Part shown: positions 9,508 to 40,600 of the stretch, piece after piece
How positions within the stretch are numbered: the first letter of the stretch is position 1
Layout: each line of letters starts with the position of its first letter
NCBI GenBank assembly: GCA_021809925.1
Contig: JAJZJV010000002.1
Span: forward strand, 7,666-71,665
Origin: Candidatus Micrarchaeota archaeon
GTDB taxonomy: Archaea; Micrarchaeota; Micrarchaeia; Micrarchaeales; CABMGC01
Reading direction: 5' to 3'
DNA: 64,000 nt
Program-made: the position numbers and the translations under genes
The notes under the pieces: model-generated
Databases searched by the model: none
Told to the model about the DNA's origin: nothing
What the model saw: the letters and a program-made list of their open reading frames with translations, nothing else

Positions 9508-9511
9508 TTGT

Positions 9512-22288: not shown

Positions 22289-22666
22289 TTATCTGGAGCT
22301 CTTCCTTTTTTTTATCTTCTTTGCTTTTTCCAGATCGAGCTTTGGCATGTAGTTCATCAACGACAAAATGTAAAGAAAAGCGATCACAACCAGTCCTGCA
22401 ATGAATGCGGCTATTGTATGGGATATGAATACCATCAATATGAAGAATATTAGGCCCAGTGCAATGTAGAGTCTCTCTCTTAACTCGAATTTGTCCCTGC
22501 TCTTTTTGTATAGAGAATAACATGACGAACATACGACTAGAACATTGTTCTTCTCATTCTTTGTCACATTTCTCTTGAACCACCTTATACCCTTTATGAC
22601 GATATCGTACTCTATTTCTATTCCCTTCTTCTCTTTTCCGCAGACTATGCAATAACTCTTTGACAT
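22289..22666 (-). CDS. Membrane-anchored zinc-ribbon protein (last gene of the cluster)
   Basis: CIVCGKE ... CSSCYSLY (CxxC-x36-CxxC) is followed by two hydrophobic helices and a Lys-rich tail. Its stop codon directly abuts the convergent aminopeptidase stop. Confidence 0.55.
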   Translation of the reverse strand: MSKSYCIVCGKEKKGIEIEYDIVIKGIRWFKRNVTKNEKNNVLVVCSSCYSLYKKSRDKFELRERLYIALGLIFFILMVFISHTIAAFIAGLVVIAFLYILSLMNYMPKLDLEKAKKIKKRKSSR

Positions 22667-22676
22667 TCGATACCAC

Positions 22677-22973
22677 CTATTCTATATCGAGATCAACTAC
22701 CCTTCCCAGAGTACCCCTTATTTTCTCCTCGTCAAGTATGTTCAGCACGCTTGTTATCGCGATATCTTCTATCCCCATACGCCTCAAGACATTGGTTATA
22801 TCTTGCTGCTTGAGCCCCAGCTTTTGAAGCATGCTGGCGAATGATACAACATTCACATGGCGGTGCATCTTATTCATGGAGCTCAAGAGCTCTTCTATGC
22901 TCTTATCGCTTATTCCAAGCTTTGTGAGTATCTTTTTTATATCAATTCTGCTTATTATGAAGGTTTCTCCCAA
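22677..22973 (-). CDS. Small soluble helical-repeat protein
   Basis: Repeated LGISDKSIEELL / LGLKQQDITNVL / MGIEDIAITSVL modules. Related modules occur in the C-terminal tail of the upstream ATPase. Confidence 0.5.
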   Translation of the reverse strand: MGETFIISRIDIKKILTKLGISDKSIEELLSSMNKMHRHVNVVSFASMLQKLGLKQQDITNVLRRMGIEDIAITSVLNILDEEKIRGTLGRVVDLDIE

Positions 22974-22983
22974 TTATAACGCC

Positions 22984-24489
22984 TCATGTTATGAAGGTGA
23001 ATATCCTGGTGATTAGTATATCTGAAATACCTATGCTTCTCAGAAACTCCAGTATGAGATCCTTGTTGACATTATCCCTTATCAGTGCCTGAACCAAAAG
23101 CCGGATATCAACAAGGCCGCTCTTTGCGTCCATCTCCTTAAATACCTTCTCAATTATTCCTGAGCCAAGGTTTATTTCTACCAATTTGGAGTTCATCTCC
23201 ATCTTGCTAAACGTGTATTCCTTTTGTATAGCCGTGTTGTTCAGCTCGTCCTGATTGAGTATCTCTGCAACAGTTATTGTATACATATCCAAAGGTATCT
23301 CTCCTACAACCTTGTCAAGTATGAAAATATCTGGGAATTGAACGCTGGTGTGGAAAGACATGTCTATTGCTGCTTGTCCGACCCCGAACTTGCTTATCTC
23401 TGACCTTATAAACTGCGAGAAGTTAAGCGATCCTTGAAGGTAATTCATGAACTTTTCAAACCTGACCCTAAGCATTATTGTAGTTCCGACATTTGAGAAG
23501 ATCGCTTCGTTTATATCAGTAGGGTTTTGCGATGCTACTATTAGCCCAAACTGGTATTTTCTTCCTTCCCTTACAATCATTACCGCGTCGCTTCTATCAT
23601 CCCCTGCAATCTTCCACGCCTCGTCAAGCACTATTATAGCTTTGAGCCCTTTGGATGCACTCCAACCCTCGGCCCTCATCTTTTCCTTTAAGGTTTGCAA
23701 TATGAACAATGCTGCCATGGCCCTAAACTGTTCATCAGGAAGACCTGAAAGATCTATTGATACAAGGCCAGATGTGGAAAGCTTTCCCAGATCTATTGTG
23801 CTCTTCTTAGCAAAGAAGTCTTCGCCCTCCCTTGAGAATTGCCTTAGCCTATAAATTGCATTTTCTAGCTCTGCTGGATATTGATAGGTGTTTTCCTCAA
23901 GCTTTTCTTCCAGCAACGCAACGACATCTTTTATTGTGGGTGCATCTTTCTTAGGGTCAGGAGGGTTGGCAATGTCGAATCCGGCATTAAGATAGGATTG
24001 CTCTATAGCTTCTGCAGTTAATCTGCGCTGCTCTGGATAATTTGAGATGTCAGTCAATATGTCAAATGAATTCATGATCTGCTTCGTTCTGTCAAGAGGC
24101 TTCATTCCCGAAAGATCCATTATATTTATGAAATCTCCCTTCGCGAGTGATACAACTGTGCCTCCGCTCTGCCTCACCCATGCCTTATACTCACCAGCCC
24201 AATCAATTATTATGGCGTTTGTGTTCCAGATATAGCTTGCGCGTATCAGGAAGGTCTTAATCAGGAAGGACTTTCCAGCACCAGTTATCCCAACTATCGC
24301 AAGATGTGGATTTGTCAGAGATGCAAAAGTCCAAGTGAACGGAACCTTGAATAGTTTTGTTATGCCTATGAATATAGAATCTGTAGGATCGTTTAGCAGG
24401 AACTCGAAAGGAGGCTCTGGGGGCCTGCTGAAGAATGCTCTTTTTGCGAGCTCATTACTCATAACATTTTGGATCCTAAGAAGTGTCAT
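22984..24489 (-). CDS. P-loop ATPase of the VirB4/TrbE/CedB (AAA_10/DUF87-like) type, short form (501 aa)
   Basis: Walker A is NPHLAIVGITGAGKSF and is followed by NAIIIDWAGEY. Walker B is KAIIVLDEAWKI and is followed by REGRKYQFGLIVASQNPTDI. It lacks the long N-terminal domain of the ~800-aa bacterial VirB4. Confidence 0.75.
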   Translation of the reverse strand: MTLLRIQNVMSNELAKRAFFSRPPEPPFEFLLNDPTDSIFIGITKLFKVPFTWTFASLTNPHLAIVGITGAGKSFLIKTFLIRASYIWNTNAIIIDWAGEYKAWVRQSGGTVVSLAKGDFINIMDLSGMKPLDRTKQIMNSFDILTDISNYPEQRRLTAEAIEQSYLNAGFDIANPPDPKKDAPTIKDVVALLEEKLEENTYQYPAELENAIYRLRQFSREGEDFFAKKSTIDLGKLSTSGLVSIDLSGLPDEQFRAMAALFILQTLKEKMRAEGWSASKGLKAIIVLDEAWKIAGDDRSDAVMIVREGRKYQFGLIVASQNPTDINEAIFSNVGTTIMLRVRFEKFMNYLQGSLNFSQFIRSEISKFGVGQAAIDMSFHTSVQFPDIFILDKVVGEIPLDMYTITVAEILNQDELNNTAIQKEYTFSKMEMNSKLVEINLGSGIIEKVFKEMDAKSGLVDIRLLVQALIRDNVNKDLILEFLRSIGISDILITRIFTFIT

Positions 24490-24525: not shown

Positions 24526-25350
24526 TTATTTCTGTGTCTGGAATATTTTGCTTAACTCTTTCTTTCCTAGCAGCGCATAATTAAATTTATACATATAGTA
24601 AAGCTCCCTCCCAACTATACGCATTATATTGAGGTCAAATGAATTGAAGACTGTCTGGAGTTCGTTTATTTGGTTCTCCATTGAGTCTACAGCTTCCTTC
24701 TCGCTTACGCCTACTGCTGTAGTTTCTATGTACATAAGGCTGTTAACTGGGCGCTCCCCTGCAGATATTCTCTCAATCCTTGTCTGAACTATGCTTATCC
24801 TCCTTTGAAGATCTTCAATTGTCATCTGGTTTGCATTCTGGCTCTTCATCTCTTTTGAGAGCTGGAATTCCAGGAAACCTCTCTGTCCCTCAAGATCGCT
24901 CCTGTAGCTCTGTATGTCCTGCGCCGCAGTTATCACATTGAACCTGAATGGAAAGTCTATGCTCATCAATAGTCTTTCCCATTTCTCAGACGAAGATGCG
25001 AGATTCGCTTCTTCGTTTGCTTCAGGATTTTCTGCGGCAAATATATAGTTGTAGATGTTGGCTGTGAGGTAACCAGTGGCATAATATAGCCCGTTTGTGT
25101 ATTTAATCACAGACTTTTGGTCCTTAGGTATTATGAAGTTCCTGCCAGGAATTATTGTGATCCTTAGCACCGAGGTAAAAAGGGGAAATAGTATGAAGTC
25201 TGCATAGTTTATTGCGAGGTTTATTATTATCGTTAGTATAGCTAGTATTATAACTATTATAGAGAATTCTCCATAGCTGGAAGCAGTGGTCACAAGTGCC
25301 AATGCGAGTAAGGCAGTCACACCCAAGTATACCACATCTTCTATGTCCAT
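24526..25350 (-). CDS. 2-TM anchor plus soluble alpha/beta domain protein (274 aa), paralog A. Candidate VirB3/VirB4-N-terminal-like.
   Basis: Two N-terminal hydrophobic helices, then ...VIKYTNGLYYATGYLTANIY.., a helical segment and ..LMYIETTAVGVSEKEAVDSMENQINELQTVF. It has the same architecture and length as the next gene. Confidence 0.55.
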   Translation of the reverse strand: MDIEDVVYLGVTALLALALVTTASSYGEFSIIVIILAILTIIINLAINYADFILFPLFTSVLRITIIPGRNFIIPKDQKSVIKYTNGLYYATGYLTANIYNYIFAAENPEANEEANLASSSEKWERLLMSIDFPFRFNVITAAQDIQSYRSDLEGQRGFLEFQLSKEMKSQNANQMTIEDLQRRISIVQTRIERISAGERPVNSLMYIETTAVGVSEKEAVDSMENQINELQTVFNSFDLNIMRIVGRELYYMYKFNYALLGKKELSKIFQTQK

Positions 25351-25354: not shown

Positions 25355-26182
25355 TCACATCCCTTCAGTTCTTGTCTTCATCCTCTCACTTATCGTGCTA
25401 AGTGGTATCCTTGCATCTGGCTCAACGAATAATGCAAGCTCTTCGCCTTTGATTAAGTATGCGGTCACGCCCAATATCGAGCTTATTCCTGAAGCCAACT
25501 CCTCTGCTTGCTGATTAGATAAGCTTACTGCTTCCTCCTCGTTTCCACCAATAGCTGTCACCATTCCAAATGAGACGAGCGTCTGTGACTTGGTCTCGCT
25601 GATGCTGTCGGAAAGGTTCCGCCACATTGTGACCTCGCCTTTTGCTCGGTCCAGTGCTGTTGGATTCTCTACTCTTTTCGCTAGCGCATCGTTATATCTT
25701 CCCTCTGCTTCGTTGAGCTTGGTCTTAATTTTATTAATGTACTCATCTTTGTTTACCATGTACATCTGAGTAGCTATCTTTATAGGAGTCTTTGATAGAG
25801 TTAGTACACGGCCAAAAAGCCTTGAGAAATCTAGCTTCTCCTGGTCGTTCATCTCTGTAGACGATCTGTAGATTGGAATCTTTACAAATGTACTTGCGTA
25901 AACGTCGTCTTCGCTCCTTGTTATTATGGAGGTTCCTGAAGATGCCATTGTAAAAGGATCATCGTTATCCAGTACTATTGCGCCCCCCTTCATCCTGAAT
26001 AATGGACCTAGGAGATATAGGTAATATCTTGTCGAAAATGCCAAGATGTCTATCATAAGTATGATTATCGCAATTATGAACTTAATCGCTGTGCTGATCT
26101 GGAGAGTGCTAGTTATAAGGATGAGAAAGGCGGCAACGCCTACCAAGATTATGAAGATTATGCTTCTAAAGTTGAATGCCAA
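25355..26182 (-). CDS. 2-TM anchor plus soluble alpha/beta domain protein (275 aa), paralog B
   Basis: Two N-terminal helices, then ..IITRSEDDVYASTFVKIPIY.., a helical segment and ..LVSFGMVTAIGGNEEEAVSLSNQQAEELASGI. It is collinear with paralog A. Confidence 0.55.
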   Translation of the reverse strand: MAFNFRSIIFIILVGVAAFLILITSTLQISTAIKFIIAIIILMIDILAFSTRYYLYLLGPLFRMKGGAIVLDNDDPFTMASSGTSIITRSEDDVYASTFVKIPIYRSSTEMNDQEKLDFSRLFGRVLTLSKTPIKIATQMYMVNKDEYINKIKTKLNEAEGRYNDALAKRVENPTALDRAKGEVTMWRNLSDSISETKSQTLVSFGMVTAIGGNEEEAVSLSNQQAEELASGISSILGVTAYLIKGEELALFVEPDARIPLSTISERMKTRTEGM

Positions 26183-26223: not shown

Positions 26224-27330
26224 TTATATGTTTGCTGTCAGCCTTCTTGAGGTCTGTGCCATCCCTCCTATCAGATTTGATATTGTTAGTATAGAAAAGT
26301 ATGTTATTGCAAGGTTCAATGCCGGGAAGAAGAGCACCGATATCCAGAAAGAGCTCATCGCTGTTTTGACATCTGCTATTTGAGTCACTAGAGGGGAGCT
26401 TGGTGAGACAGTCCCTGGGGGGAAGTTGCAGACCAAGCTACCCGTTGTTGGATTCTGTGAGCAATCGCTAAACTTGTTAAGGTTAACTGCAGCATTGTTA
26501 AGGCTCGTTATTGAGCTCTGGCTCGTAAAGTAAAAAGAGATAGAAAAGAGCATTGGCATTATTAGGTAGAACCCTATAGCAACTGCAACCATCATCCCAC
26601 CCATGCTTCTTGTCGGCAATAACGCACGAAATATTATTCCAGGTATGAGAAATACAGGTATTGCAGCGTACATCAAGAACAATATCAGATAATATTCTAT
26701 ATAGAGCACCATCAGCCCGTCTATTAGCAGTATTGCTATGGTTACAGAGGGATTGACCAAAAAAAACAATAGAGGATATTGGAGTGGCTTTGGTATATGC
26801 CATTCATGCTGATTTGGAAAATAAATAAGTATGTCAAGTTTCAATGTAGAAACATAATATGCATCGTTCTCTATATAAAAGAGATTTGAGAGTACATTGT
26901 CAGTAGAATTGATAGTCTGGCTGATATAGCTTAGAGAGGTGTTATACGGGTTTATCGGGCCTGTGACAATGCTTGGAAGGATGCCGAACATGGTGGAAGA
27001 GATGTAAAGGAAAAATGTCACTATGAGCGTTGTTGCTATAGCCTCATAGAATTCCCCAATGCCATAAGTTCTTACCCTATCGCTATTGAATATTACCCCA
27101 ACCAGGAATATTAGTGTGGCTATAGTAAATGAGAATAATATTGCAACAACTGCGATAGGAGCCCAGTTGTTCCAACTTTTCACTACTGACTGATTTATCT
27201 GACTGCAATACCACGGTGCCAGGGCGTTGACAGTGCCGGCTGTGCTGCAGTAGCTAAACAAGTCTGCGTGCACATTGTTTAGCAGCATTGTTGTAAAGAG
27301 AATTGCAGCAATAATCATGCTTTTCTTCAT
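26224..27330 (-). CDS. Polytopic membrane protein, member 6 of a six-gene tandem paralog family (VirB6-like topology)
   Basis: Sec-type signal peptide MKKSMIIAAILFTTMLLNNVHA. Topology is TM1-TM2, a large Cys/Asn-rich loop, then 4-5 more TMs. The family motif is degenerate here: FRALLPTRSMGGMMVAVAIGFYLIMP. Confidence 0.65.
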   Translation of the reverse strand: MKKSMIIAAILFTTMLLNNVHADLFSYCSTAGTVNALAPWYCSQINQSVVKSWNNWAPIAVVAILFSFTIATLIFLVGVIFNSDRVRTYGIGEFYEAIATTLIVTFFLYISSTMFGILPSIVTGPINPYNTSLSYISQTINSTDNVLSNLFYIENDAYYVSTLKLDILIYFPNQHEWHIPKPLQYPLLFFLVNPSVTIAILLIDGLMVLYIEYYLILFLMYAAIPVFLIPGIIFRALLPTRSMGGMMVAVAIGFYLIMPMLFSISFYFTSQSSITSLNNAAVNLNKFSDCSQNPTTGSLVCNFPPGTVSPSSPLVTQIADVKTAMSSFWISVLFFPALNLAITYFSILTISNLIGGMAQTSRRLTANI

Positions 27331-27338
27331 TTTTGCAC

Positions 27339-28430
27339 CTAAACCAAAGTTGTTAATATTGATAAGAAATCAAGCCTTTCGCCTATTGCTTGCGAGAAAT
27401 CCAATACGAATGTATCTATTATTACAAAATTAAGTAAGGGTATAAATGTTAGCCCAACACCTATGAACCCAGCATATATTAGAATCCCTTCCTTAAACGA
27501 TTCATATAGTATGATTAGCAGAGCTACAAGAGATGGAGACACTATGTAGGATGTTGCCCAAGAAGGCAAAATGCTTGATATGGTAGAGCTTGCTATTATA
27601 CTAGCATAAGATGCGAAGACTGTTCCTAGGAGTACAGGTATGTTAATGCCGCTGTGTGCTATTCCATAATCAATAACACCATATGTTATTCCTGCTAGAA
27701 TTGGGTATATTATTCCAATTCCGAATGCCAGCGCGATCATCGCTCCACCAAATGTCCTGGTTATCCCAAACGATCGTGATATGAGCCCAATAGCCATAAG
27801 TATTGAGAATATGAGTACGGATGAACTAAGTATGAGGAGTTGCACCTGATTTAGGATTATGGTCAAAAATACAAGTCCATATAAAGGGCCGTAGAATGTT
27901 ACTACTGGATTTAGATTCTCAGGAGACAATGATATAGTATATTGTATGCTTACGCTTCCAGGGTGAATGGAGATAACTCTTTGTGGACTTATGGAGGCCA
28001 ATATTGATACATAGTATACCAGAAGATTAAGTTCCCCAACATTATGGTTGAATTGTTTAAGGTTGCATATGCTTATCACATAGAAGTTATTAACTGCAGG
28101 ATTATCGCAACTTCCAGTGACCATCCCGAAATTTGAGAAGATCTGGTGCGGATCTGCTATTATTATTGAGGTGGAAAATGCGGCAAAGATTAATATTAAA
28201 ACTATTGACAGGAGCAATTCGTATATCTTTATTCGTATCCAGTTGCGTATATCACTTCTTCCCATCAGTGGGCTTAATGCATAGACTATTCCAAAGATTG
28301 AGATTATTGCAATAACCGCAGATATAACCACCGGAAACCAGGAAGTATATGGAGACGTCAGGAAATTGCATATGCTACCGAGAGGACTGATGCCTCCCGT
28401 GCATCCACTTACTAAAAGACTTGGAATCAT
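27339..28430 (-). CDS. Polytopic membrane protein, family member 5
   Basis: Family motif ISRSFGITRTFGGAMIALAFGIGIIYP with the same topology. There is a 1-nt overlap with the upstream gene. Confidence 0.65.
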   Translation of the reverse strand: MIPSLLVSGCTGGISPLGSICNFLTSPYTSWFPVVISAVIAIISIFGIVYALSPLMGRSDIRNWIRIKIYELLLSIVLILIFAAFSTSIIIADPHQIFSNFGMVTGSCDNPAVNNFYVISICNLKQFNHNVGELNLLVYYVSILASISPQRVISIHPGSVSIQYTISLSPENLNPVVTFYGPLYGLVFLTIILNQVQLLILSSSVLIFSILMAIGLISRSFGITRTFGGAMIALAFGIGIIYPILAGITYGVIDYGIAHSGINIPVLLGTVFASYASIIASSTISSILPSWATSYIVSPSLVALLIILYESFKEGILIYAGFIGVGLTFIPLLNFVIIDTFVLDFSQAIGERLDFLSILTTLV

Positions 28431-29644
28431 TATATCAGCTTGTTGAAGAGCGTCTTGCTCTTGAGGGATGGCGACCCTAATATATCTCCTAATTGCTCCA
28501 TCAGATCAAAAGATATTATAAACGCTATTATTATGCCTAACAGTTGCAATCCAATAAAAGTTATGTTATTTACAAACTGGTCAGCGTTGGCACTAAGCGC
28601 ACCGCCGAAATTCAATGGAATAAACGTTTTTATAAGAGTGTAAAGTGCATTCGCCCCAATTTTAGAATTGGTAGTGAAACTTGATAGCAAATTATTAGAA
28701 TTGCATAAGGTCGTTAATGCTGAGCTCGGCGAGGTGCCCGCGCAGAGTATATTGGTGCTTGATTGAAGCGTTGAAGAGAGTGAGATAAACGGATAAAGCA
28801 CTGCAGGAAATATTATATAGAACGAGATAAATAATGCAATCATAGACCCGCCTGCTGCTCTTGTCCATGGAAATGATCTCAGGAGAAGACCAAGATATAG
28901 GAATAAGGGAAATAAGAAGTAAATAAGCAGCAGGAGTATGATAACTGCAAAACTCAGTGTTACTACAAGGGAAAATGAGCTGCTTTCTAGTATTATCATC
29001 TTTTGTATTACGTCTGTTCCTTCTAAAGGCCTGAAGCTGAAGCCAGGATTAATATATGCAGGTAAATAAGATACTCCGCCGCCATTTGCAGTCAGGTCTA
29101 TCTGAATGCTCTGCATAAGCTGGAGCGGCAATATAAATAATGAAAGACCAATAATGTTCTGCAATGAGTTGTCTATCGTGCCATAATAGCCATTGCATAT
29201 GCTTACATACATGGCATTCGTGCTTGTCACGGGGGCGACGTTGTAAGATTGAAGACCAACGGAAGTAATTGATGACAAGAATGTCATTATGGTGTCAGTC
29301 CCACTTATCCCCCCCACTATGAGAATCACTATAAGAAGATTCGCAAAACTCTCCATGTATTCAGACTTTACGAAAGCTTTCAATTTCTCTATACCAAAAG
29401 CCATCCCCACCATATAAATAATTCCTAAGACAGTTAGGACGGTAAGTATGACAAGCATTGTAATGCTGATCATCTCTGAGTAGGTTGAGCCCCTTGACAA
29501 AGAGGTATTAATAAAAGTATTAGAGCTGCTAAAGAGGTTGTTGCATGACGGAAAGAGCGCAGTGCTTATGAAGCCGGCCGCATGGGATAGGTTAGGGATT
29601 AATGCAAGGCATATGAGAAGCACAAGATAAAAATATTTTTTCAT
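28430..29644 (-). CDS. Polytopic membrane protein, family member 4
   Basis: Signal peptide MKKYFYLVLLICLALIPNLSHA. Family motif LLLRSFPWTRAAGGSMIALFISFYIIFP. Confidence 0.65.
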   Translation of the reverse strand: MKKYFYLVLLICLALIPNLSHAAGFISTALFPSCNNLFSSSNTFINTSLSRGSTYSEMISITMLVILTVLTVLGIIYMVGMAFGIEKLKAFVKSEYMESFANLLIVILIVGGISGTDTIMTFLSSITSVGLQSYNVAPVTSTNAMYVSICNGYYGTIDNSLQNIIGLSLFILPLQLMQSIQIDLTANGGGVSYLPAYINPGFSFRPLEGTDVIQKMIILESSSFSLVVTLSFAVIILLLLIYFLFPLFLYLGLLLRSFPWTRAAGGSMIALFISFYIIFPAVLYPFISLSSTLQSSTNILCAGTSPSSALTTLCNSNNLLSSFTTNSKIGANALYTLIKTFIPLNFGGALSANADQFVNNITFIGLQLLGIIIAFIISFDLMEQLGDILGSPSLKSKTLFNKLI

Positions 29645-29648
29645 GTTA

Positions 29649-31127
29649 TCACAATAGCCTGCTTAATCCGAGCAGAGATGTATTACCGCCAAACAATGAG
29701 GACAGACCCATTATTGACGTTATTATTATAAGTAAGTTCAATATTGGAAGTATAAATCCGATTACAGAATCTATTCCATAAACATGTAGTATTGCAAGTA
29801 GCGAGTTTAGGGCTTCTGTGGGGTGACAATTAAAGTAACCATATGGAGGCATTGCTGGAGAGATCCCTCCAAGATGGGATGAGCCGAATGAAGAAATGAC
29901 TGCGAGCACCGCTCCGCCGCCAGTAACTGCGCCAGATAGAGGGAAGGTGTAGTAAGCAACTAATTTCAGCTCTGCTGAGAGGAGTCCTGTTGAGCCGGGA
30001 AGGCCCGATGGCCAGCATCCATTATAATTTATGGCTTCTGCAAGGTTTGGTATTACAAAGAAATTTGGAGTATAATGAGGACAGGTCTTTGGATCCCCGA
30101 TAATGCAGGTATTATCATTGAATGGTTTATAGTACAGGGACATTGAAGGAATTAAACTCGCACCCACAGGTTTGATAGATGGACTTGTAAGGGAGGTATA
30201 TTCAAAAATAAAGAATATTGGATATATTATAACCATTACTATGCTTATGGCCATTAATAAGCCGCCAACCTTTCTTGTCAAGAAAGATGAGTGCAGTATT
30301 ATGCCACCTGCCAAGAGATATGGCCAGATATATATGAACAGAATAATAAACAGGAGAATGAATGAGGAGAGATAAAATAATAAGTATGCCTGTGCTTCTA
30401 TCATCTTCGTGCCTCTCAGCATCATATAATAACCTACAAATGGTTCATAGGTATATACACTCTCAAATGCAAATCCCTCTCTTGGGATTATGCAGCTCAA
30501 TGGCACTAGTGGTTCGCATATGCCTACTCTGGCATCGAGCTCTCGCAGGAATGCCATATAGTTCTCAAATATATAAAGGGAGTTAAGATTTGCAGCAGTT
30601 TGATTAGTTATGTTTGCATTAAGTATGTATGCAGCCGATAATCCATAATCTATATTAGTTGCTATGTGGGGGTTTGGAGAAGCAGCTGCCGCTTGTGCAT
30701 TAGGTATCTCGATGTTGCAGATAGTATTTGTTGGATATCCGCTTAAAATGTCGAGTGGGGAGCCTTTGAAATTATTAATCGAGGATGGTACAAGATAAGT
30801 ATTACATATGTTTGCTAATGAGCTCGGAGGGATTGAATAAAATGTCGATAGAGAGGATGTTCCGAATGTATATAAAATGCCTACAAGTATTACAACGATT
30901 ACTGTCAGGCCTATTATCTGGCCGAATTCAGTTATTGCATTTGCTTTTATCCGCTTATTTCCCAACACTGCGCCGAGTAGGTAGTACATGCTGACCAGAG
31001 AGGCACTTGCCATTATTGCGGCCATTATAACAGGGAGCCAATTCTGGAATTCAGAGTATGGGGTGAATATGCTTTGGGCTAACACCACAGAAGGAATGAA
31101 TGCGGATAGGAGTAGTATGCTTTTCAT
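29649..31127 (-). CDS. Polytopic membrane protein, family member 3 (largest, 492 aa)
   Basis: Signal peptide MKSILLLSAFIPSVVLA. Family motif ILHSSFLTRKVGGLLMAISIVMVIIYP. The extracytoplasmic loop is expanded. Confidence 0.65.
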   Translation of the reverse strand: MKSILLLSAFIPSVVLAQSIFTPYSEFQNWLPVIMAAIMASASLVSMYYLLGAVLGNKRIKANAITEFGQIIGLTVIVVILVGILYTFGTSSLSTFYSIPPSSLANICNTYLVPSSINNFKGSPLDILSGYPTNTICNIEIPNAQAAAASPNPHIATNIDYGLSAAYILNANITNQTAANLNSLYIFENYMAFLRELDARVGICEPLVPLSCIIPREGFAFESVYTYEPFVGYYMMLRGTKMIEAQAYLLFYLSSFILLFIILFIYIWPYLLAGGIILHSSFLTRKVGGLLMAISIVMVIIYPIFFIFEYTSLTSPSIKPVGASLIPSMSLYYKPFNDNTCIIGDPKTCPHYTPNFFVIPNLAEAINYNGCWPSGLPGSTGLLSAELKLVAYYTFPLSGAVTGGGAVLAVISSFGSSHLGGISPAMPPYGYFNCHPTEALNSLLAILHVYGIDSVIGFILPILNLLIIITSIMGLSSLFGGNTSLLGLSRLL

Positions 31128-31132
31128 TTCTA

Positions 31133-32281
31133 TTAACCCCAGAAAGGACCTATCCCCATTATTCTGGATACTGAGCTGAGGCCTCCTGCAAGGCCTTGGA
31201 CAAAACCCAACGTTATTGCAAAGTCCAATCCAAGAAGCACAATTCCCTGGAATAAGTATTCTGCAACGCTGAAACTTGCTTGCTGCATTGCTATTGGCAT
31301 TGTGAATAGAGAAAGTATGCTAAGTGGCGAACTCGCTCCGAAAATGTTGGCGAAGAAGGATATAGAACCGCTATAACCTGTTGTTTGCCAACCCCCGTTG
31401 GTCGAGAACAAGAAACTTGTAGGGAGAGATGTAAGAGTATCTGTCTTAATGTATGTTGAGTAGTATGGATTACATATTGTCGTATTTTGACAATACATCC
31501 AATTTATTATCGCACTGTTCAAGACTATTGTCAATGGAAATACAAAATAGAGGCCTATGCTTATTGCTAAAAGAATGTTTGCTGATTCCCTCAACCTTGG
31601 ACCTGTGAAAGAGAGTGATCTCAGTATTATAGAGATTGGGATCAATACGGCTAATGCTGCTGAAGCGATGAGCGGAAGTAGGATATATATTAAAAGAAGC
31701 ATGCCGAAGGTTGCAGTTACAAGGCTCATCATTGAACCAACATATATGTCTGCGTATGAGTAGAAAAGATTTGGCAGATTAGCAGAGAAAGAAAGTTTGC
31801 TGCCTCGGCTTGACATTGCCGCGAGGTTCTGAATTAAGAAATCCTGGGTAAGAATATCAGTAGCAGTACCTGCCAATAACACATTTATTGTATCTGCAAA
31901 TAATGTTGTTGTTAGTTTCTGACCCTGCACGAAGAGAAGAGAAGAGATATAATTCTCTGAAAATTGTATAGGATCATAGGTCTTGGTTGAGCTGTAGGTT
32001 AATGATGATACAACAGTGCAGGAAAATGTTGAGAAAGTTATCAATAGTATTATTATGAGTATGCTTACTATACCTTCAACTGCCTCGTATCTGACAATTC
32101 CTCTTAATTTTTCCCTGTTTATGAATGGAAGGATACCGCTCAGAGAATAAAGAAGAGATCCAATCATCATCGTTGCCATTACTACGAGAATGCTGATGCT
32201 TATCCAATCATTCCTGTTTATCGTGCCAAAATTGCAGCTTTGCTGAAAAATGTTCGGTGTCAGTAAGGCCAAGAGCATCAT
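31133..32281 (-). CDS. Polytopic membrane protein, family member 2
   Basis: Family motif variant IILRSLSFTGPRLRESANILLAISIGLYFVFP. There is a 4-nt start/stop overlap with the upstream gene. Confidence 0.6.
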   Translation of the reverse strand: MMLLALLTPNIFQQSCNFGTINRNDWISISILVVMATMMIGSLLYSLSGILPFINREKLRGIVRYEAVEGIVSILIIILLITFSTFSCTVVSSLTYSSTKTYDPIQFSENYISSLLFVQGQKLTTTLFADTINVLLAGTATDILTQDFLIQNLAAMSSRGSKLSFSANLPNLFYSYADIYVGSMMSLVTATFGMLLLIYILLPLIASAALAVLIPISIILRSLSFTGPRLRESANILLAISIGLYFVFPLTIVLNSAIINWMYCQNTTICNPYYSTYIKTDTLTSLPTSFLFSTNGGWQTTGYSGSISFFANIFGASSPLSILSLFTMPIAMQQASFSVAEYLFQGIVLLGLDFAITLGFVQGLAGGLSSVSRIMGIGPFWG

Positions 32282-33492
32282 ACCAACCTCAGCTTTGATC
32301 CTAAGCTTGTAACGACACCGGTTGAGCTGCCGAGCATTCTGGCTATTGTATCCATTAGAGGTATTGCTATGGCTAGATCAAGTATAAATAACACAAATTG
32401 GGCTACCAGATTAACCGTATGGTAAACTAGATCATTTATTGTTGGATATATGGAGTAGAGTGCAGATAAGCCAATAACTATTGAGGTGGTTGATATGCCC
32501 ATATTGGTTAAAACAGTTGTATATCCATTCACAACTGAACATAGGATGCCTGAGGTGCATGATGGGGAGGATGGCGTGGTTGGACCATGGAAAGCGGTGT
32601 TGAGTACATTTGTCACAGGGGCATTAAGAATCACGAGAAGAGAGGGATAGATTATTGAGATGCCTATGCCTATTGCGATTAGCACGCCCCCAACGCCTCG
32701 AACGAATGGAAATGATCTTAGTATTAAGCCTATTGGGATTACTAAAAGCAGACCAATTTTCACAATATATGGCAATAGTGCCATCTCGCTCCCTATTATC
32801 ACAGATATTGGAAATAGAACGATTACTATAGTATCAGATAATATTGATTCGTAATTCCTTACAGTAATGCTATATGGTGTAAGCATCTCGTTTGTTAGAC
32901 CAGCCGGTGTGAATGCGACACCAGTTATCAAATATGGTAGTGGAATGCCATCAGGATAAGGAATTGGCGGAGTCGGGTCATAGTATTGTATAGTTAAAGA
33001 AGTTAATGCACCTATGCCGATACTCAACCCACCTACAGCATCGTAAGCGCAGGCTAGGTTGTTGTCGACCCCAGTTAAGTATATCTCGCCAGAATTTACC
33101 AACCCTGCCAAGTTTGATGAATACGAGCTTGAAGGCGTTTGTCCACTTATTATCACAGCCATGCTGCTCATGAATAGCAATATAGAAAATATGCTTGCTA
33201 TCAAGATCATTGTTTTCGCTATCTCGTAGTATTCTCTTTCTATCCATCCCCTAAGCCCAGCGCCGGAAAAGATCTTGCTTATTATGTAGCCTATGGCAAC
33301 TACATCTATTGAGAGAGTTAGTGCTATCAGTGATACAGCTATTGCTTCATTATATACAGATCCAGGTATTGTGATTGTTGTTTTAATAGGTGATCTTAAT
33401 GAGCAAGAAGTAGCAGCAGATACCAGACTTGGCAGTAAGGCGATTAGCACCATAAAAATGCAGGCTTTGTTAAGAGCCATCTCATCATACAA
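32278..33492 (-). CDS. Polytopic membrane protein, family member 1
   Basis: Signal peptide MALNKACIFMVLIALLPSLVSA, so the start may be the Met at 33480. Family motif LILRSFPFVRGVGGVLIAIGIGISIIYP. Confidence 0.65.
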   Translation of the reverse strand: MYDEMALNKACIFMVLIALLPSLVSAATSCSLRSPIKTTITIPGSVYNEAIAVSLIALTLSIDVVAIGYIISKIFSGAGLRGWIEREYYEIAKTMILIASIFSILLFMSSMAVIISGQTPSSSYSSNLAGLVNSGEIYLTGVDNNLACAYDAVGGLSIGIGALTSLTIQYYDPTPPIPYPDGIPLPYLITGVAFTPAGLTNEMLTPYSITVRNYESILSDTIVIVLFPISVIIGSEMALLPYIVKIGLLLVIPIGLILRSFPFVRGVGGVLIAIGIGISIIYPSLLVILNAPVTNVLNTAFHGPTTPSSPSCTSGILCSVVNGYTTVLTNMGISTTSIVIGLSALYSIYPTINDLVYHTVNLVAQFVLFILDLAIAIPLMDTIARMLGSSTGVVTSLGSKLRLV

Positions 33493-33537: not shown

Positions 33538-34320
33538 TCAATGTCTTAGCAGAGGGAATCTTTTCATATACGCTTCTGCCTGAAGTATCACAAAATAAGG
33601 CATTATCAGCAAAGAAGTTATTATAAGAACAACATATCTTGATAGGAGAGTACCTGTTATGCCTATAGCAAGTACGTCAAGTATCGATATAGATAGGGTA
33701 GATAATAGAAGCCAGCCGACAAAGTATACTGGCTCCCGGTATATTAGCTTTGTGCTGTCCTTTATCGAACGGAAGACTCGCTTATCGTCAACAACTATTG
33801 CGCTTGGAACGTAGAATATGATTAGGAATGCAATAAATCCTACAATGGAAGTTAAAACTCCGCCAAGCGAAGGAAGGTAGTAGCTTGCTATGATATTGGT
33901 AGCTACCACCACCAAAGCATATGCCAGCAGAACCACAAATACCCTTGAGATGTACTTTTCTATATCTCTAAGCACACTTCCAGCTATTTTTGTGTGTGTA
34001 CGCTTAGATTTGACTATTAGACTTATTGCAACGAAAGCAAAACTCAAGAAGAGAAGAGAGAAGAACACTGAGAATATTATAACGGATATGCTTATTGGGT
34101 TCGTGTTAATGAATATGCTTGCGCTTCTTAGGAATATGCCACCAGCAGTCATGTAGGTAGGAAGTGGGGCAAATAAAGGTATCGCCACAGCAATTATGAA
34201 GGGTATAGAAAACAGGAGCACTAGCTTTAAATTCTGAAAGTATGTCTCTAGGGAATCAGTGAGGACATTTCCCATTATTGCACCATTTGATATACTGCGT
34301 CTCAATAAATAAAAAGCCAT
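33538..34320 (-). CDS. Polytopic membrane protein (260 aa), unknown function
   Basis: At least 6 hydrophobic segments. There is a 1-nt spacer to the upstream gene. No motif was recognised. Confidence 0.5.
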   Translation of the reverse strand: MAFYLLRRSISNGAIMGNVLTDSLETYFQNLKLVLLFSIPFIIAVAIPLFAPLPTYMTAGGIFLRSASIFINTNPISISVIIFSVFFSLLFLSFAFVAISLIVKSKRTHTKIAGSVLRDIEKYISRVFVVLLAYALVVVATNIIASYYLPSLGGVLTSIVGFIAFLIIFYVPSAIVVDDKRVFRSIKDSTKLIYREPVYFVGWLLLSTLSISILDVLAIGITGTLLSRYVVLIITSLLIMPYFVILQAEAYMKRFPLLRH

Positions 34321-34321: not shown

Positions 34322-36223
34322 CTATTGGCTGCTTTTGTTGTAGACAGGATTGCTTACATAATAATAATCATTGTTGTATAAGATTGCAGAAAATGGCCCA
34401 GTTGTGTATGGTCCAACCATGTATTTAATCCTAAGAGGATACGTGTCGCTGCTCTTATTTAAAATTATTTTATTAATATTTATAGTGCATTCTAAAGAGA
34501 CGCATGTGTTGCTTTTGTTTATGATACTCTCATTTATAAACCCGTAAAAACCAAATGTGCTGTTGCTGACCCCAATAGTAGAAACATAAATAGTATTGTT
34601 TGTCAGATTATTGTAACTAATTGTGGCATTGTAGTAAATGTAATTTCCATTTATTGCCAGATCTTGGTTCTTTAGTGATATATTGAAGTTGTGAGTATAT
34701 TGGTTGTGTGATCTGATTATAATTGCAGTTGACGCTAGGATAATAAATAACATAGTAATAGCCAAAGCAGGCGTTGCATATCTTCCGATTCTCTCTTTTA
34801 CTATCCCAGGTCCTTTGTTTACGTTCTTTGAGTATAAGGCAAAGACAAAGAAGAAGGAGAACATGCTAAAGTAGGAGATTAGTGCGTGAGATAGAAGTAA
34901 GAAAGGAACCATGCTAAATAGAGGTATTAGCTCTTTCTTATTTATATAAATTAAGAGTATTGCTAAGGCAATTATAGACAAATAGAAGAGTTTTGAGAAT
35001 ACAAGCATGGTGATATGGTAACTGGTCAGTAACGAGAATCCAAGGATTGCTGCGCCGCTTGGCATAATTAATGAACTTACCGGAGCGAATACAGAACTCC
35101 AGTATATTCCCGGATTTATTATTATAACATAGGAGTTTATCAGGAAGAAGACTGCCAAGGCCCCAAGTATATTAAACGCTCCTCTCTTTAATCCCTGATT
35201 ATTAATCATGTATATTATAAAGAATATCACGGGAATCCATAATTCCTCTTGTATCGCGAGTGCTATGCCTAGAAGGATAAATGCATATTTTTTGTCCAGC
35301 TTTGAGTAGGTGATAAGCAAAAGCGTGAGCATTATATATACGGGCAAGGATGCTACAAACGCTATTGAAATTATAAAAAATAATATTAGTGAATATCTGG
35401 GGGAGAGATTCTTCTCATCATGCAGAAGGATTGTTGCTGTAATTATAAGCAGGAATAAGAATATTGCAGCTTCGAGACTCATGTCAATATGGGAAAGGTT
35501 GTGAAGAGTCATGCTAGAGATTAGATAAAATGGCGCTGAGATCAAAGGATACAGCGCAGGATATTCCAGAGAACCCATTATTTTATTGTTTGTTGTGATT
35601 GTCACTCCTATAGTACTGACATTGCCTAGTAGAAAATTTGAGAAGGAAAGGGCATATGGATTAGTGCTATTCAGCAAGGACTTTATGCTTAAGAAGGATA
35701 TCACGGTCTCGTCGTCTACAGAGTACCTTGTAAAGACATGGCCAGATAAGAAATAGAATAGCAATATAACCAATATTAATGCATAAAGAATTAAGGCAAT
35801 TTTGTAGCTTCTTTTGTGAAGGAAATACGCAGCAAATGTAGCAATGAAAAGCAATGGGAGCAATATAACTAGATATGTGCCTATGTTCTCTAAGAGATAA
35901 AGTAGGGTTTGTATAAGACCGGAAGAAATGCTGTTGCCTAGAACATATAGGTAATATATGAAAAGTAGGATTAATATAAGGAATAAGATATTTAGTATAA
36001 GCTTGGTTGCTTTCTTACTTATGCTTCTTCCTTTTGTGTTCCCTTGTTTATTATCACGTAATGAGATAAGAGATGCAACTAAGTAGATCAATGAAATGGA
36101 TATGTATAGCGAGGCTACAAACCTTGCAATTGGCACTAGGAATAGTGAATAATAAGATAAAGCAATTGTGATGAGGAAGAAGAATAATATTATAAATATT
36201 TGAGATTTAGAATTAAGTCGCAT
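34322..36223 (-). CDS. Large polytopic membrane protein with a sequon-rich C-terminal ectodomain. Possible GT-C-fold glycosyltransferase.
   Basis: About 480 aa of TM helices including LEYPALYPLISAPFY. A ~120-aa tail follows with many N-x-S/T sequons (NISL, NATI, NLTN, NNTI, NSTF, NESI, NKSN, NKSS). The GT-C call is weak and pattern-level only. Confidence 0.45.
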   Translation of the reverse strand: MRLNSKSQIFIILFFFLITIALSYYSLFLVPIARFVASLYISISLIYLVASLISLRDNKQGNTKGRSISKKATKLILNILFLILILLFIYYLYVLGNSISSGLIQTLLYLLENIGTYLVILLPLLFIATFAAYFLHKRSYKIALILYALILVILLFYFLSGHVFTRYSVDDETVISFLSIKSLLNSTNPYALSFSNFLLGNVSTIGVTITTNNKIMGSLEYPALYPLISAPFYLISSMTLHNLSHIDMSLEAAIFLFLLIITATILLHDEKNLSPRYSLILFFIISIAFVASLPVYIMLTLLLITYSKLDKKYAFILLGIALAIQEELWIPVIFFIIYMINNQGLKRGAFNILGALAVFFLINSYVIIINPGIYWSSVFAPVSSLIMPSGAAILGFSLLTSYHITMLVFSKLFYLSIIALAILLIYINKKELIPLFSMVPFLLLSHALISYFSMFSFFFVFALYSKNVNKGPGIVKERIGRYATPALAITMLFIILASTAIIIRSHNQYTHNFNISLKNQDLAINGNYIYYNATISYNNLTNNTIYVSTIGVSNSTFGFYGFINESIINKSNTCVSLECTININKIILNKSSDTYPLRIKYMVGPYTTGPFSAILYNNDYYYVSNPVYNKSSQ

Positions 36224-36257
36224 GCTTATTACTACTCAACAAAATTTAAGTAGAATA

Positions 36258-36280
36258 TAAAAGAAAAAAAAGAAAAAAAG
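36258..36280 (-). terminator. Oligo-T transcription terminator downstream of the pilin-like gene
   Basis: The minus strand reads TTTTTTTCTTTTTTTTCTTTT. It begins 17 nt after the TGA at 36297-36299. Runs of at least 5 T are the known archaeal termination signal. Confidence 0.6.
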
Positions 36281-36296
36281 AATATCTCAGTGCTAA

Positions 36297-36671
36297 TCAG
36301 CAACCTGAGATACTGCTTATTGAGCTTCCGAAGCCGGCAACCGTTGTTACGATCCATGGTGCTGCCAATACGAGTATTAACCCTATTATGCCACCCATAA
36401 TCATACCAAGAGACCATCCTTGTAGACCGCTTCTCAAATTACCTGCAGCAGGCAGGAAGTGAGCCGCAGCATAAAGAACGCCGCCTACTACGAACAATAC
36501 TAGCGCGAATATGCCTACGACAGTTCTTACAGTATTTACTATATTACATAGATTGCTAGTGAGAAGATTTACTGAACTCTGTGCAGACAGTGACAGGCCT
36601 AGTAAATTCGCTACTACGCCACCTATGAAGACTAGATATATTGCTAGTCTTATTTTTTTGCTTATCTCCAT
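36297..36671 (-). CDS. VirB2/TrbC-like pilin candidate (124-aa precursor)
   Basis: Signal peptide is MEISKKIRLAIYLVFIGGVVANLLGLSLSA. It is followed by QSSVNLLTSNLCNIVNTVRTVVGIFALVLFVVGGVLYAAA (helix 1). Next come the short loop HFLPAAGNLRSGLQGWS and LGMIMGGIIGLILVLAAPWIVTTVAGF (helix 2), with a Ser-rich C-terminus ending in Cys. This is the two-helix hairpin layout of VirB2-type pilins. Confidence 0.55.
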   Translation of the reverse strand: MEISKKIRLAIYLVFIGGVVANLLGLSLSAQSSVNLLTSNLCNIVNTVRTVVGIFALVLFVVGGVLYAAAHFLPAAGNLRSGLQGWSLGMIMGGIIGLILVLAAPWIVTTVAGFGSSISSISGC

Positions 36672-36680
36672 CTAAATCAA

Positions 36681-36743
36681 CTTATATGTGTAAATCTTAT
36701 GAAAAAGTAACCTTAAATAACTTGGGTTTTGGGGGTTTAAATA
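36681..36743 (-). promoter_or_regulatory. Promoter region of the pilin-like gene with several TATA-like boxes
   Basis: The minus strand contains TATTTAAACC (36733-36743), TTATTTAAGG (36711-36720) and ATAAGATTTA (36691-36700), upstream of the ATG at 36671. The 92-nt spacer is the largest inside the cluster. Confidence 0.3.
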
Positions 36744-36763
36744 CTTTGTTGTGCGCAGTATGG

Positions 36764-38950: not shown

Positions 38951-38976
38951 TGTGGAAGTGTTCTGTGAAGTTGTTA

Positions 38977-39669
38977 TTAGTCATTCTTCATACGTAATCT
39001 TAATCTTAATGCTGCATTTATGAAATAGATCACATCTGAGATATGAACGTTGCTTTGTGGCTGCTCATCCCAAGAAATTGGAAACTCTCTAACTTTAATA
39101 CCGTCTCTCTGAGCCATTATTATTAGCTCTGTGTCAAAAAACCAATGGTCATCTTTTACCTTTTTTATATATGTTTTTATAAATCTTGAGGACCAGAACT
39201 TGAAGCCGCACTGATGGTCTTTAACTTTAGATTGAAAGAGAAGTGCAATTAACCAGTTGTATGATAAGCTAGCAAATAATCTCAGAATACTCCTATTAGC
39301 ATCTGATCCTTTAATATAACGTGATCCTGTTACAAAAACCTCCCCATTATCAACCAAGGTAACGGCTTTGTTAAGATATCTTGCAGGAACTGCCATGTCA
39401 ATATCCAAGCATCCTATGATGTTGCCTTTAGCAAGCGTTATGGCTTCTTTTATTGCTTTCCCTTTCCCAAGCCTATGATTTGATGTCATTAACCGTACGT
39501 GAAGCATCTTGGACTTTTCCCTGCAGATAGTGGGGGAATTGTCTGTGGAGCCATCCTCTGCTAGTATTATCTCGAAATTGCCGAGTTTTTTGGTTTCTTT
39601 GTAAATAAGATCGAAATTCTTCTTAAGGTTGCCTTCTTCATTATGTATTGGAAGGATTAAAGAAAGCAT
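38977..39669 (-). CDS. GT2-family glycosyltransferase (dolichyl-phosphate sugar synthase-like)
   Basis: LSLILPIHNEEGNL, EIILAEDGSTDNS and LDIDMA (DxD) motifs. The ATG at 39669 is preferred over the GTG at 39687. Confidence 0.85.
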   Translation of the reverse strand: MLSLILPIHNEEGNLKKNFDLIYKETKKLGNFEIILAEDGSTDNSPTICREKSKMLHVRLMTSNHRLGKGKAIKEAITLAKGNIIGCLDIDMAVPARYLNKAVTLVDNGEVFVTGSRYIKGSDANRSILRLFASLSYNWLIALLFQSKVKDHQCGFKFWSSRFIKTYIKKVKDDHWFFDTELIIMAQRDGIKVREFPISWDEQPQSNVHISDVIYFINAALRLRLRMKND

Positions 39670-39691
39670 AGTACCATCAACATGCACTGAA

Positions 39692-40600
39692 TCATTTAAC
39701 TGAGGCGATTATACCATCGATTATGCCGTTAACGCCTATGCCGCCTGTAGACCTTACGGCTATCCTGTGGCTGAGAACAGGCCTTGCAAGGAACTTTATA
39801 TCATCGATGCTCACTTCCTTTCTGTCTTCTATCAGTGCTTTGGCTTTGGCTGCCTGCATGAAAGATATGTCGGCCCTTGGGCTTGCACCCATTGTTGTAT
39901 GGATCTCTTTTCGCGTTGCTCCGACTATCTTTGTTATGTATTGTACAACATTGTCAGGCATAACAATGCCTTTGGCTGCCTGCTGCATTGATAGGATATC
40001 GTTTGTAGAGATGACCTTCTTGGCCTCAACGTTCTCCTCGCGTTCCTTTATCCTCAGCATCTCTTGCTCCTCTTCCATGCTTGGATAATCCACATCTATC
40101 TTCAAGAGAAATCTGTCACTAAGCACCTTTGGCAGTGGCTCTGTCCCTTCTATCTTCAGGGGATTCTGTGTTGCAAATGCTGTAAAAGGAGATGGAAGCC
40201 TGATATCCTCTCCGCCAACAGTGACCTGGCGCTCCTCAAGCGTCTCAAGCAAACCACTCATCGTCTTCGGGGAAGACCTGTTGAGCTCATCTATCAATAG
40301 GATATTTGTAAAGATCGGGCCTTTGTTGAATTTGAGATTTCCGGAAGGATCTTCAGAGACATATCCGACAATATCCTTTGTTTGCAGATCGGATGTTCCT
40401 TGGATTCTCTTGAAGTCTCCCTGTATAGTCTCTGCGAGGGTCTTTGTCATTGTTGTCTTAGCGACCCCAGGAACCCCTTCGAGCAAGGCATGCCCATTTG
40501 CCACCATGGTTATGAAAAGAAGCTCTATGGTGTCTTTTTTGCCAGCTATGTGCTTCTTGACTTCTTCGGAAACTGCGAGATAAGCCTGATGCGCATCCAA
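39692..40600 (-). CDS. MoxR-family AAA+ ATPase
   Basis: HALLEGVPGVAKTTMTKTLA (Walker A), ILLIDELNRSSPKTMSGLLETLEERQVTV (Walker B/sensor), FATQNP. It is 302 aa. Confidence 0.9.
   Translation of the reverse strand: MDAHQAYLAVSEEVKKHIAGKKDTIELLFITMVANGHALLEGVPGVAKTTMTKTLAETIQGDFKRIQGTSDLQTKDIVGYVSEDPSGNLKFNKGPIFTNILLIDELNRSSPKTMSGLLETLEERQVTVGGEDIRLPSPFTAFATQNPLKIEGTEPLPKVLSDRFLLKIDVDYPSMEEEQEMLRIKEREENVEAKKVISTNDILSMQQAAKGIVMPDNVVQYITKIVGATRKEIHTTMGASPRADISFMQAAKAKALIEDRKEVSIDDIKFLARPVLSHRIAVRSTGGIGVNGIIDGIIASVK

Follow-up and report, generated by a model that had tools for sequence, protein, structure and literature searches.

Which machine is built from six consecutive genes for polytopic membrane proteins in a Candidatus Micrarchaeota archaeon? 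The genes occupy positions 26224-33492 on the minus strand of a 64,000-nucleotide stretch of contig JAJZJV010000002.1 (the whole stretch is called the window here). They encode proteins of 404, 382, 492, 404, 363 and 368 residues, which we numbered P1 to P6 in order of transcription. We conclude that P1-P6 probably form the polytopic membrane core of an apparatus, encoded on the chromosome throughout Micrarchaeota, that derives from type IV secretion machinery of the conjugation type and in which they hold the position of VirB6. The six genes are:

P1, 32278..33492, minus strand: 404 residues, TTG start; the shared motif reads LILRSFPFVRGVGGVLIAIGIGISIIYP (residues 256-283).
P2, 31133..32281, minus strand: 382 residues, without an obvious cleavable leader; its motif variant has a 4-residue insertion.
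P3, 29649..31127, minus strand: 492 residues; external loops the largest of all six, with 8 cysteines.
P4, 28430..29644, minus strand: 404 residues; the paralog chosen for AlphaFold2 (AF2) modelling.
P5, 27339..28430, minus strand: 363 residues; its N-terminus resembles a lipobox (LLVSGC), and the C-terminal half carries additional hydrophobic segments.
P6, 26224..27330, minus strand: 368 residues.

All six are open reading frames (ORFs) with the lengths reported in the initial annotation, and both overlaps that it described are real: P1 and P2 share 4 nucleotides (32278-32281), and P4 and P5 share 1 nucleotide (base 28430). The remaining junctions are gaps of 4-8 nucleotides.

Pairwise BLASTP aligned the six proteins collinearly but weakly, at 21-27% identity. 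Profiles built from 57-65 orthologs of each protein and compared with hhalign gave a far clearer signal, with 15 of 15 pairs at 96-99.5% probability (E values of 4e-9 to 4e-23), whereas the neighbouring membrane proteins M260 and M633, used as controls, stayed below 12% against P1-P6. Because every pair scored this highly and the controls gave nothing, profile comparison identifies P1-P6 as genuine paralogs, beyond chance, rather than mere hydrophobic look-alikes. Low-complexity hydrophobic similarity as the source of the shared motif, a possibility raised at the outset, is excluded by the same scores.

The common motif is R-x4-5-[TV]R-xx-GG...A...P, located in the turn between the third and fourth transmembrane (TM) helices. 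As had been read from the individual proteins, it occurs in all six paralogs; it stands in register in the six-way alignment, with R, A and P invariant, and is kept within every orthologous group, each with its own signature. The P4 signature RSFPWTRAAGG is nearly invariant across 46 orthologs, and that of P5 reads R.FG.tRtFGGaMIA. Among 105-135 members of the five groups other than P4, P283 never varies, and conservation of R259, R265 and A273 is 90% or higher (P1 numbering). The acidic E-x-x-E turn between TM1 and TM2 is likewise conserved. As a separate observation, the P5 N-terminus, MIPSLLVSGCTGG, contains the lipobox-like string L-V-S-G-C, and P5 alone among the paralogs might be a lipoprotein.

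The AF2 model of P4, computed from a 46-sequence alignment, reached a mean predicted local distance difference test score (pLDDT) of 79 and a predicted TM-score (pTM) of 0.74. It contains long helices at residues 54-83, 86-130, 142-178, 208-256, 259-293 and 346-388, and a beta-hairpin at 182-204. Hydropathy profiles follow one plan in all six proteins: after an optional leader come TM1 and TM2, then a large loop, then a long TM3 followed by TM4, and finally, behind a second loop, TM5. Lysine and arginine residues cluster in the TM1-TM2 loop, the TM3-TM4 turn and the C-terminal tail, while all cysteines fall in predicted external segments and are even in number (4, 4, 8, 4, 4 and 4 in P1 to P6). 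Because AF2 helices, hydropathy, positive-inside charge and cysteine-outside distribution agree, an N-out, C-in topology with five TM helices (2+3), a big external loop after TM2 and disulfide-bonded external domains is supported. The conserved motif is accordingly modelled, with support from the same data, as a tight cytoplasmic turn between TM3 and TM4. The architecture first proposed for the family thus stands in its conserved TM1-TM2 turn and its large loop after TM2. It does not stand in the 4-5 further TM segments: the big loop is usually followed by three hydrophobic helices, of which one is unusually long (35-45 residues), giving five TM in total, and P5 has extra hydrophobic stretches. 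The proposed likeness to VirB6 in topology is borne out, as the published VirB6 model is also N-out, with 5 TM, a large external loop after TM2 and C-in (PMC6120205); the published description of TrwI, with seven long helices of which five are hydrophobic, fits as well (PMC9259494).

To define how widely the locus occurs, we scanned one genome per GTDB species and obtained 67 loci, the nearest at 95% identity. Locus genes were called as ORFs and labelled with phmmer by homology to window proteins only, with Pfam run on selected ORFs. Gene order is near-invariant: pilin - (M633) - M260 - P1 - P2 - P3 - P4 - P5 - P6 - B275 - B274 - ATPase - c98 - s125, the names other than P1-P6 being those of window proteins described below. 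The P1-P6 run is complete and in order in 50 of the 67 loci; another 15 hold sub-runs in the same order, mostly truncated at contig ends, and the last 2 carry frameshift-like disruptions of the run. A 727-kb contig of a metagenome-assembled genome (MAG), with independent gene calls, shows the identical order. Median gaps between the P genes are -4 to +4 nucleotides, and this tight spacing is kept in 58-65 genomes, consistent with co-translation and so with the translational coupling and fixed stoichiometry suggested in the initial annotation. The six clades of P1-P6 go back to ancient duplications and are never lost, and they stand in fixed order at near-zero spacing.

A HMMER scan of 1.84 billion representatives (50% identity) with the six-paralog profile returned 2700 members at E<=1e-3; no annotation came with them, and the clusters of 10 that were looked up carried no names. 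For P4 we recovered 114 homologs at 90% clustering, all without annotation, and those carrying organism names come from Candidatus Micrarchaeota or Micrarchaeaceae MAGs or from evidently mislabelled bins. Eight loci (L001, L016, L017, L028, L039, L043, L052 and L065) and two proteins (P0046 and P0109) belong to MAGs labelled Marsarchaeota, 'bacterium', Acidiferrales, Saccharimonadales or Baltobacteraceae; these foreign-labelled records are probably taxonomic mislabels or mis-binned Micrarchaeota contigs.

The link to secretion rests on two neighbours:

ATP501, 22984..24489, minus strand: 501 residues, a VirB4/TraC/CedB-type ATPase with only the C-terminal ATPase domain, three genes downstream of P6.
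pil124, 36297..36671, minus strand: 124 residues, a VirB2/TrbC-like pilin with a signal peptide and a two-helix hairpin.

A VirB4-family ATPase and a VirB2/TrbC-type pilin are thus both present, and both are co-linear with P1-P6 in most of the 67 loci. The secretion-system setting of the array is real, with the ATPase downstream and the pilin upstream. ATP501 matches the Pfam domains DUF87 (DUF87/HerA), AAA_10 and P-loop_TraG. Its best NCBIfam match is CedB (2e-18), followed by CedD, VirB4 CD1110 and TraC, with alignment confined to the C-terminal half of the models. Against PDB sequences it matches the VirB4 C-terminal domain 4ag5 (E 2.7e-9), and against Clostridium VirB4 the hhalign alignment covers residues 435-690 of 797. 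By tblastn it matched at least 5000 plasmids at traC/virB4 genes, 94% of them conjugative. Its own orthologs are 70-76% identical, and the best 120 matches listed are all of Micrarchaeota type, offering no link to other lineages; this level of identity is consistent with vertical inheritance.

The pilin assignment draws mainly on the orthologs. For the window protein, the Pfam matches to T4SS_pilin (E 1.7e-3) and TrbC (E 5.5e-3) are both under threshold, but TrbC is matched by 21 of 42 orthologs (best E 4e-8) and T4SS_pilin by 12 of 42; the pilin heads the cluster in 42 loci. Its profile found no match among PDB sequences. The N-terminal hairpin of P2 aligned with the pilin profile in hhalign at 82% probability (E 1e-5, 47 columns) and the merged P-family hairpin at 65% (E 6e-5, 63 columns), TM-helix alignments of this kind being unreliable. 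Pilin-hairpin kinship has been reported for VirB6-VirB2 and CedA-CedA1, and the published VirB2-VirB6 hairpin match stands at 66.6% (E 1e-3); by these scores the P hairpin-pilin match appears to be of the same order of strength.

Two further observations concern the pilin. Two cysteines are invariant in its family, one just past the signal peptide and one at the C-terminus or close to it; they could pair in an N-to-C disulfide, which might be the functional counterpart of head-to-tail cyclisation in TrbC/VirB2 pilins. In many genomes other than the window, a type IV pilus assembly ATPase (T2SSE) and partners lie divergently upstream of the pilin (L069:1-2357; genes '.400<.522<').

Between P6 and the ATPase lie two related genes:

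B275, 25355..26182, minus strand: a TM hairpin at the N-terminus, then an alpha/beta domain; conserved in 50 loci.
B274, 24526..25350, minus strand: a paralog of B275, likewise with a TM hairpin at the N-terminus and an alpha/beta domain; conserved in 49 loci.

Their paralogy is apparent from hhalign (97%, E 9e-11). The AF2 model of B275 (pLDDT 79), searched with Foldseek against the PDB, returned R388 TrwK/VirB4 chains as its top 8 matches and 11 of its top 14, all weak (E 0.12-0.44, probability <=0.93). Neither B275 nor B274 matches VirB3 or VirB4 at the sequence level, and hhalign against PrgI, VirB4 and ATP501 gave nothing significant. Because ATP501 is without the N-terminal half of VirB4, we read B275/B274 as the missing part: the model is suggestive of a candidate VirB3-like hairpin joined to a VirB4-N-domain-like module, and hence of a split VirB4. 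The order P1-P6, B275/B274, ATPase parallels the order VirB6, PrgI (VirB3), x, VirB4 in a Clostridium cluster of the MPF-FATA (mating-pair formation, FATA) type. An ORF of ~800-880 residues after P6 in L021 and L022 was considered as a full-length VirB4 and proved to be alanyl-tRNA synthetase.

Several results weigh against reading P1-P6 as the VirB6-like core of such a machine. Pfam TrbL/VirB6 (PF04610) gave no match at E<=1 in the six window proteins or in 46 P4 orthologs, and no VirB6/TrbL/CD1112 model of Pfam or NCBIfam matched any of 105 orthologs of P1, P2, P3, P5 and P6 at E<=0.1; nor has any P family detectable similarity to PrgH-type or other Pfam and NCBIfam models. In hhalign, each P profile scored below 0.5% probability against a Clostridium CD1112 VirB6-like protein. 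The P4 profile found only a chance match to AcrZ among PDB sequences. Foldseek with the P4 model returned nothing significant, with TrwI/VirB6 at rank 12 (E 1.8, TM-score 0.22-0.28) among matches to ABC exporters and TTYH proteins. The pilin-hairpin alignments rest on TM helices, which are prone to composition artefacts in profile matching, and the structural match of B275 to VirB4 is weak (E >=0.12), the matched VirB4 region not being reported in the Foldseek output. In a few genomes (L021, L022, L052 and L060) the ATPase module is not adjacent to P1-P6. Finally, the hetero-oligomer, its stoichiometry, pilus formation and the substrate are all things that we infer.

Hidden Markov models of P, pilin, M260 and B275/B274 found nothing among the ORFs of pNOB8, a conjugative plasmid of Sulfolobus that was searched in full; only the ATPases were matched. 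No P protein had a match in NCBIfam, whose models include CedB and CedD. The VirB6/TrbL likeness first proposed holds for topology and gene context; similarity in sequence or fold was not demonstrable with Pfam, NCBIfam, PDB sequences, Foldseek or hhalign. That P1-P6 work like VirB6 is plausible, the support coming from context and architecture; membership in the VirB6/TrbL family is unproven. The further statement that the motif is known from no described archaeal family agrees with our searches, as no Pfam or NCBIfam family recurs among 151 P members.

These negative results leave room for a different origin. P1-P6 could act in the same apparatus, descended from type IV secretion, and yet be an unrelated, lineage-specific invention rather than homologs or equivalents of VirB6. 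They might then serve as accessory subunits of the pilus base or tip, as pilin chaperones or insertases, as parts of a stalk penetrating the S-layer or as TM-anchored adhesins for host contact, with the channel elsewhere, for example in M260. The failure of every test for VirB6/TrbL homology speaks for such an origin, as do the presence of M260 next to P1, an equally conserved polytopic protein whose family is unassigned, and the large, variable, disulfide-rich external domains, which diverge more quickly than the ATPase, as surfaces touching a host would be expected to do. We nevertheless regard it as the less probable account, since the 2+3 TM arrangement around a central external loop is the VirB6 topology, the most conserved element is a cytoplasm-facing turn and not an external site, and the place directly upstream of VirB3/VirB4-like genes mirrors that of VirB6 in bacterial clusters. 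A role outside secretion altogether, with P1-P6 as subunits of an ordinary solute transporter or permease merely adjoining the ATPase and pilin genes, is very improbable. The proteins are polytopic and their insignificant top Foldseek matches include ABC-exporter TM domains, but none of the 151 members matches a transporter family in Pfam or NCBIfam, so that placement in a well-known transporter class, named beforehand as a possible refutation, was not observed. Nor does the cluster hold an ABC ATPase or binding protein; a protein with five TM helices and large disulfide-bonded external domains, present as six obligate paralogs, would be an atypical permease, and co-linearity with the pilin, B275/B274 and VirB4-like genes is strict, at near-zero spacing, across 67 genomes.

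A VirB4/TraC-type ATPase and a VirB2-like pilin are also hallmarks of conjugative elements, and the cluster, at a GC content of 0.40, lies slightly under its flanks (0.42-0.45). We give very little credence to the idea that it belongs to an integrated conjugative element, as its transfer module, and not to the host. No relaxase, integrase or second FtsK/TraG-type ATPase (VirD4 coupling protein) was found in the window cluster or the 67 loci, where Pfam was run on selected ORFs only, and the window has no tRNA. At least 67 species-level genomes carry one cluster each, and its neighbours are conserved; 2.9 million viral and mobile-genetic-element contigs contain no relative. The surrounding window is core chromosome of a Micrarchaeota (DPANN) archaeon, with genes for PolD, RNA polymerase A', topoisomerase I, 5S rRNA and polyprenyl synthase, and the identity among ATPase orthologs fits vertical inheritance. 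Low GC is expected in genes rich in hydrophobic codons.

Returning to a core descended from type IV secretion, we can outline how it might work. Ancient, never-lost clades in fixed order at near-zero spacing fit obligate, non-redundant subunits of a hetero-oligomer. The six paralogs, made in equal amounts, would build a single ring or stalk base, a hetero-oligomer that plausibly contains each of them once and would then match a hexameric ATPase, perhaps in pseudo-sixfold fashion. The R-x4-5-[TV]R-xx-GG turn, the E-x-x-E loop and the basic C-terminal tail would face the cytoplasm, where the ATPase and an adaptor module made of B275/B274 would dock onto them. The external domains, which evolve fast, may be a platform for extracting pilin from the membrane and polymerising it, or the part that contacts the host cell. 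The resulting pilus or conduit would point towards a Thermoplasmatales host and more likely serve Ced/Ted-like DNA uptake or another exchange of macromolecules than self-transfer of a mobile element, which is improbable because neither a coupling protein nor a relaxase was found. A bolder version, in which P1-P6 form a pseudo-sixfold hetero-hexameric conduit and stalk on a hexameric split VirB4 motor, a bridge drawing DNA, lipids or other macromolecules from wall-less Thermoplasmatales hosts, we hold only tentatively and consider unlikely in its entirety. If true, it would be unlike any described type IV secretion system (T4SS), the P family would be new and at most anciently related to VirB6, and it would offer a first molecular handle on cytoplasmic exchange between DPANN archaea and their hosts.

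The cluster can be compared with several known systems. Like A. tumefaciens VirB6 and R388 TrwI, the P proteins are N-out and C-in, with five hydrophobic helices arranged 2+3 round a large external loop; their genes keep company with those of a VirB4 ATPase and a VirB2 pilin and immediately precede VirB3/VirB4-like genes, and the N-terminal hairpin may bear a weak resemblance to the cognate pilin. By contrast, they have no detectable sequence or Foldseek similarity to VirB6/TrbL, and there are six obligatory paralogs in place of a single gene, R388 VirB6 being a homopentamer. Disulfides are abundant in their external domains, no counterpart of the R-x4-5-TR-xx-GG turn has been described, and the organism that carries them is a single-membrane, S-layer-bearing archaeon.

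The Ced system of Sulfolobales (CedA, CedA1, CedB) and the Ted system of Thermoproteales (TedA, TedC, TedB) are DNA-import systems (Beltran et al. 2023, PMC9905601). Both share with our cluster the character of a chromosomal, domesticated archaeal T4SS derivative with a VirB2-like pilin, a polytopic protein, a VirB4-like ATPase and no relaxase or coupling protein. CedB is the best NCBIfam match of ATP501, and the pilin is of the signal-peptidase-I type, as is TedC. The Micrarchaeota cluster differs in its DPANN lineage, in its six paralogs against a single CedA or TedA (a comparison made by description) and in its putatively split ATPase, with an ATPase domain only and two separate membrane-anchored proteins. 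DNA import is the function of Ced and Ted, and for the Micrarchaeota cluster it is a candidate function.

Tandem multiplication of the polytopic component, noted at the outset for Rickettsiales, is indeed found in the rvh T4SS, with 4-5 VirB6 paralogs (PMC2653234, PMC7648143), again in an obligately host-associated, genome-reduced organism. The rvh paralogs are recognisable VirB6/TrbL proteins, often with huge extensions, in a diderm, effector-secreting system, whereas the Micrarchaeota paralogs are similar in size, exactly six and unrecognisable as VirB6 by sequence. The T4SS of Patescibacteria (candidate phyla radiation, CPR), related to monoderm MPF-FATA conjugation systems (PMC12102498; PMC10633639), is likewise a phylum-wide, chromosomal system of an ultrasmall, one-membrane episymbiont, with VirB4, a VirB2-like pilin and VirB6/VirB3-like parts. 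It too has been proposed for a host-dependent lifestyle rather than plasmid transfer, and, like the present cluster, it comes without a coupling protein or relaxase. It differs in being bacterial, in having a single VirB6 found by VirB6 profiles and a full-length VirB4, and in that its essentiality has been shown experimentally.

Searches of the literature on DPANN and Micrarchaeota combined with VirB4, VirB6, T4SS, secretion or pili turned up no description of such a cluster, and papers on Mia14, M. harzensis and archaeal dark matter, together with a 2025 T4SS nomenclature review, describe it in none; the archaeal entries in that review are the Sulfolobus and Thermococcus systems only. What is new here is a T4SS/Ced-like machine with a six-paralog membrane family and, more suggestively, a split VirB4, in a cluster that is apparently undescribed. 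Micrarchaeota and other DPANN archaea are without lipid, nucleotide and amino-acid pathways and need host contact, and their route of cell-to-cell transfer is unknown (PMC8975820, PMC5498576). Ortholog identity within the cluster is uneven, highest in the ATPase, 45-50% in B275 and 30-40% in the P proteins, with surface-exposed parts diverging fastest. Because it is phylum-wide and vertically inherited, with a conserved motor (70-76%) and divergent surface-exposed parts (about 35%), the cluster is a concrete candidate for the apparatus of Micrarchaeota-host contact or transfer. It has a parallel in Patescibacteria, whose episymbiotic growth requires a T4SS. If correct, this reading would extend domesticated conjugation-type machines in archaea beyond Ced and Ted. 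It would also bring in a split VirB4 and a membrane core whose six paralogs imply a hetero-oligomeric ring, both of them unusual designs.

The remaining members of the cluster are:

M260, 33538..34320, minus strand: a 260-residue polytopic membrane protein, family unassigned; always immediately upstream of P1 (50 loci).
M633, 34322..36223, minus strand: a large polytopic membrane protein with ~14 hydrophobic segments; a variable accessory neighbour, in 22 of 67 loci.
c98, 22677..22973, minus strand: 98 residues, TTG start, a small soluble protein directly after the ATPase; conserved in most loci.
s125, 22289..22666, minus strand: a small protein, rich in Cys at the N-terminus and with a TM segment at the C-terminus; conserved in 33 loci, and in the window the run of conserved genes ends with it.

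No Pfam family was found among 46 M260 orthologs, and M260 has no profile similarity to P1-P6. M633 has a weak NCBIfam match to TIGR04370, an oligosaccharide repeat unit polymerase (E 9e-4). By tblastn, c98 is 57% identical to a 99-residue ORF in L011, and the same 98-residue gene was called independently in an NCBI MAG; its Pfam matches are weak and winged helix-turn-helix (wHTH)-like only, and it resembles the C-terminal tail of the ATPase. The Pfam matches of s125, to DUF1673 and a zinc ribbon, are also weak.

Several loci depart from this layout. One extra, unrelated ORF of 360-806 residues lies between P6 and B275 in L004, L006, L014, L018, L030 and L069, where the window has a gap of 41 nucleotides; this slot may be a position for variable cargo or an adhesin. 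Downstream of s125, most loci (e.g. L011:17126-20381) encode a ~243-residue coiled-coil/wHTH-like protein and a ~783-800-residue sequon-rich membrane glycoprotein. The window has neither, and an M1 aminopeptidase gene (19763-22288, plus strand) abuts the cluster instead.

On the other side, a glycosylation-like neighbourhood spans 34322-40600 (minus strand) and comprises M633, X728 (36764-38950, polytopic, of no family and found in one other locus only), a GT2 glycosyltransferase (38977-39687) and a MoxR AAA+ ATPase (39692-40600). M633, X728, GT2 and MoxR show no consistent link to the cluster. For the MoxR gene we considered the MoxR/vWA 'novel secretion system' (Makarova 2015, PMC5898192) and rejected it as unrelated to the cluster. 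Elsewhere in the window, tandem genes for TldD/PmbA-family metallopeptidases of 462 and 453 residues occupy 8119-10861 (plus strand), and the 5S rRNA gene lies at 43845-43956 (minus strand).

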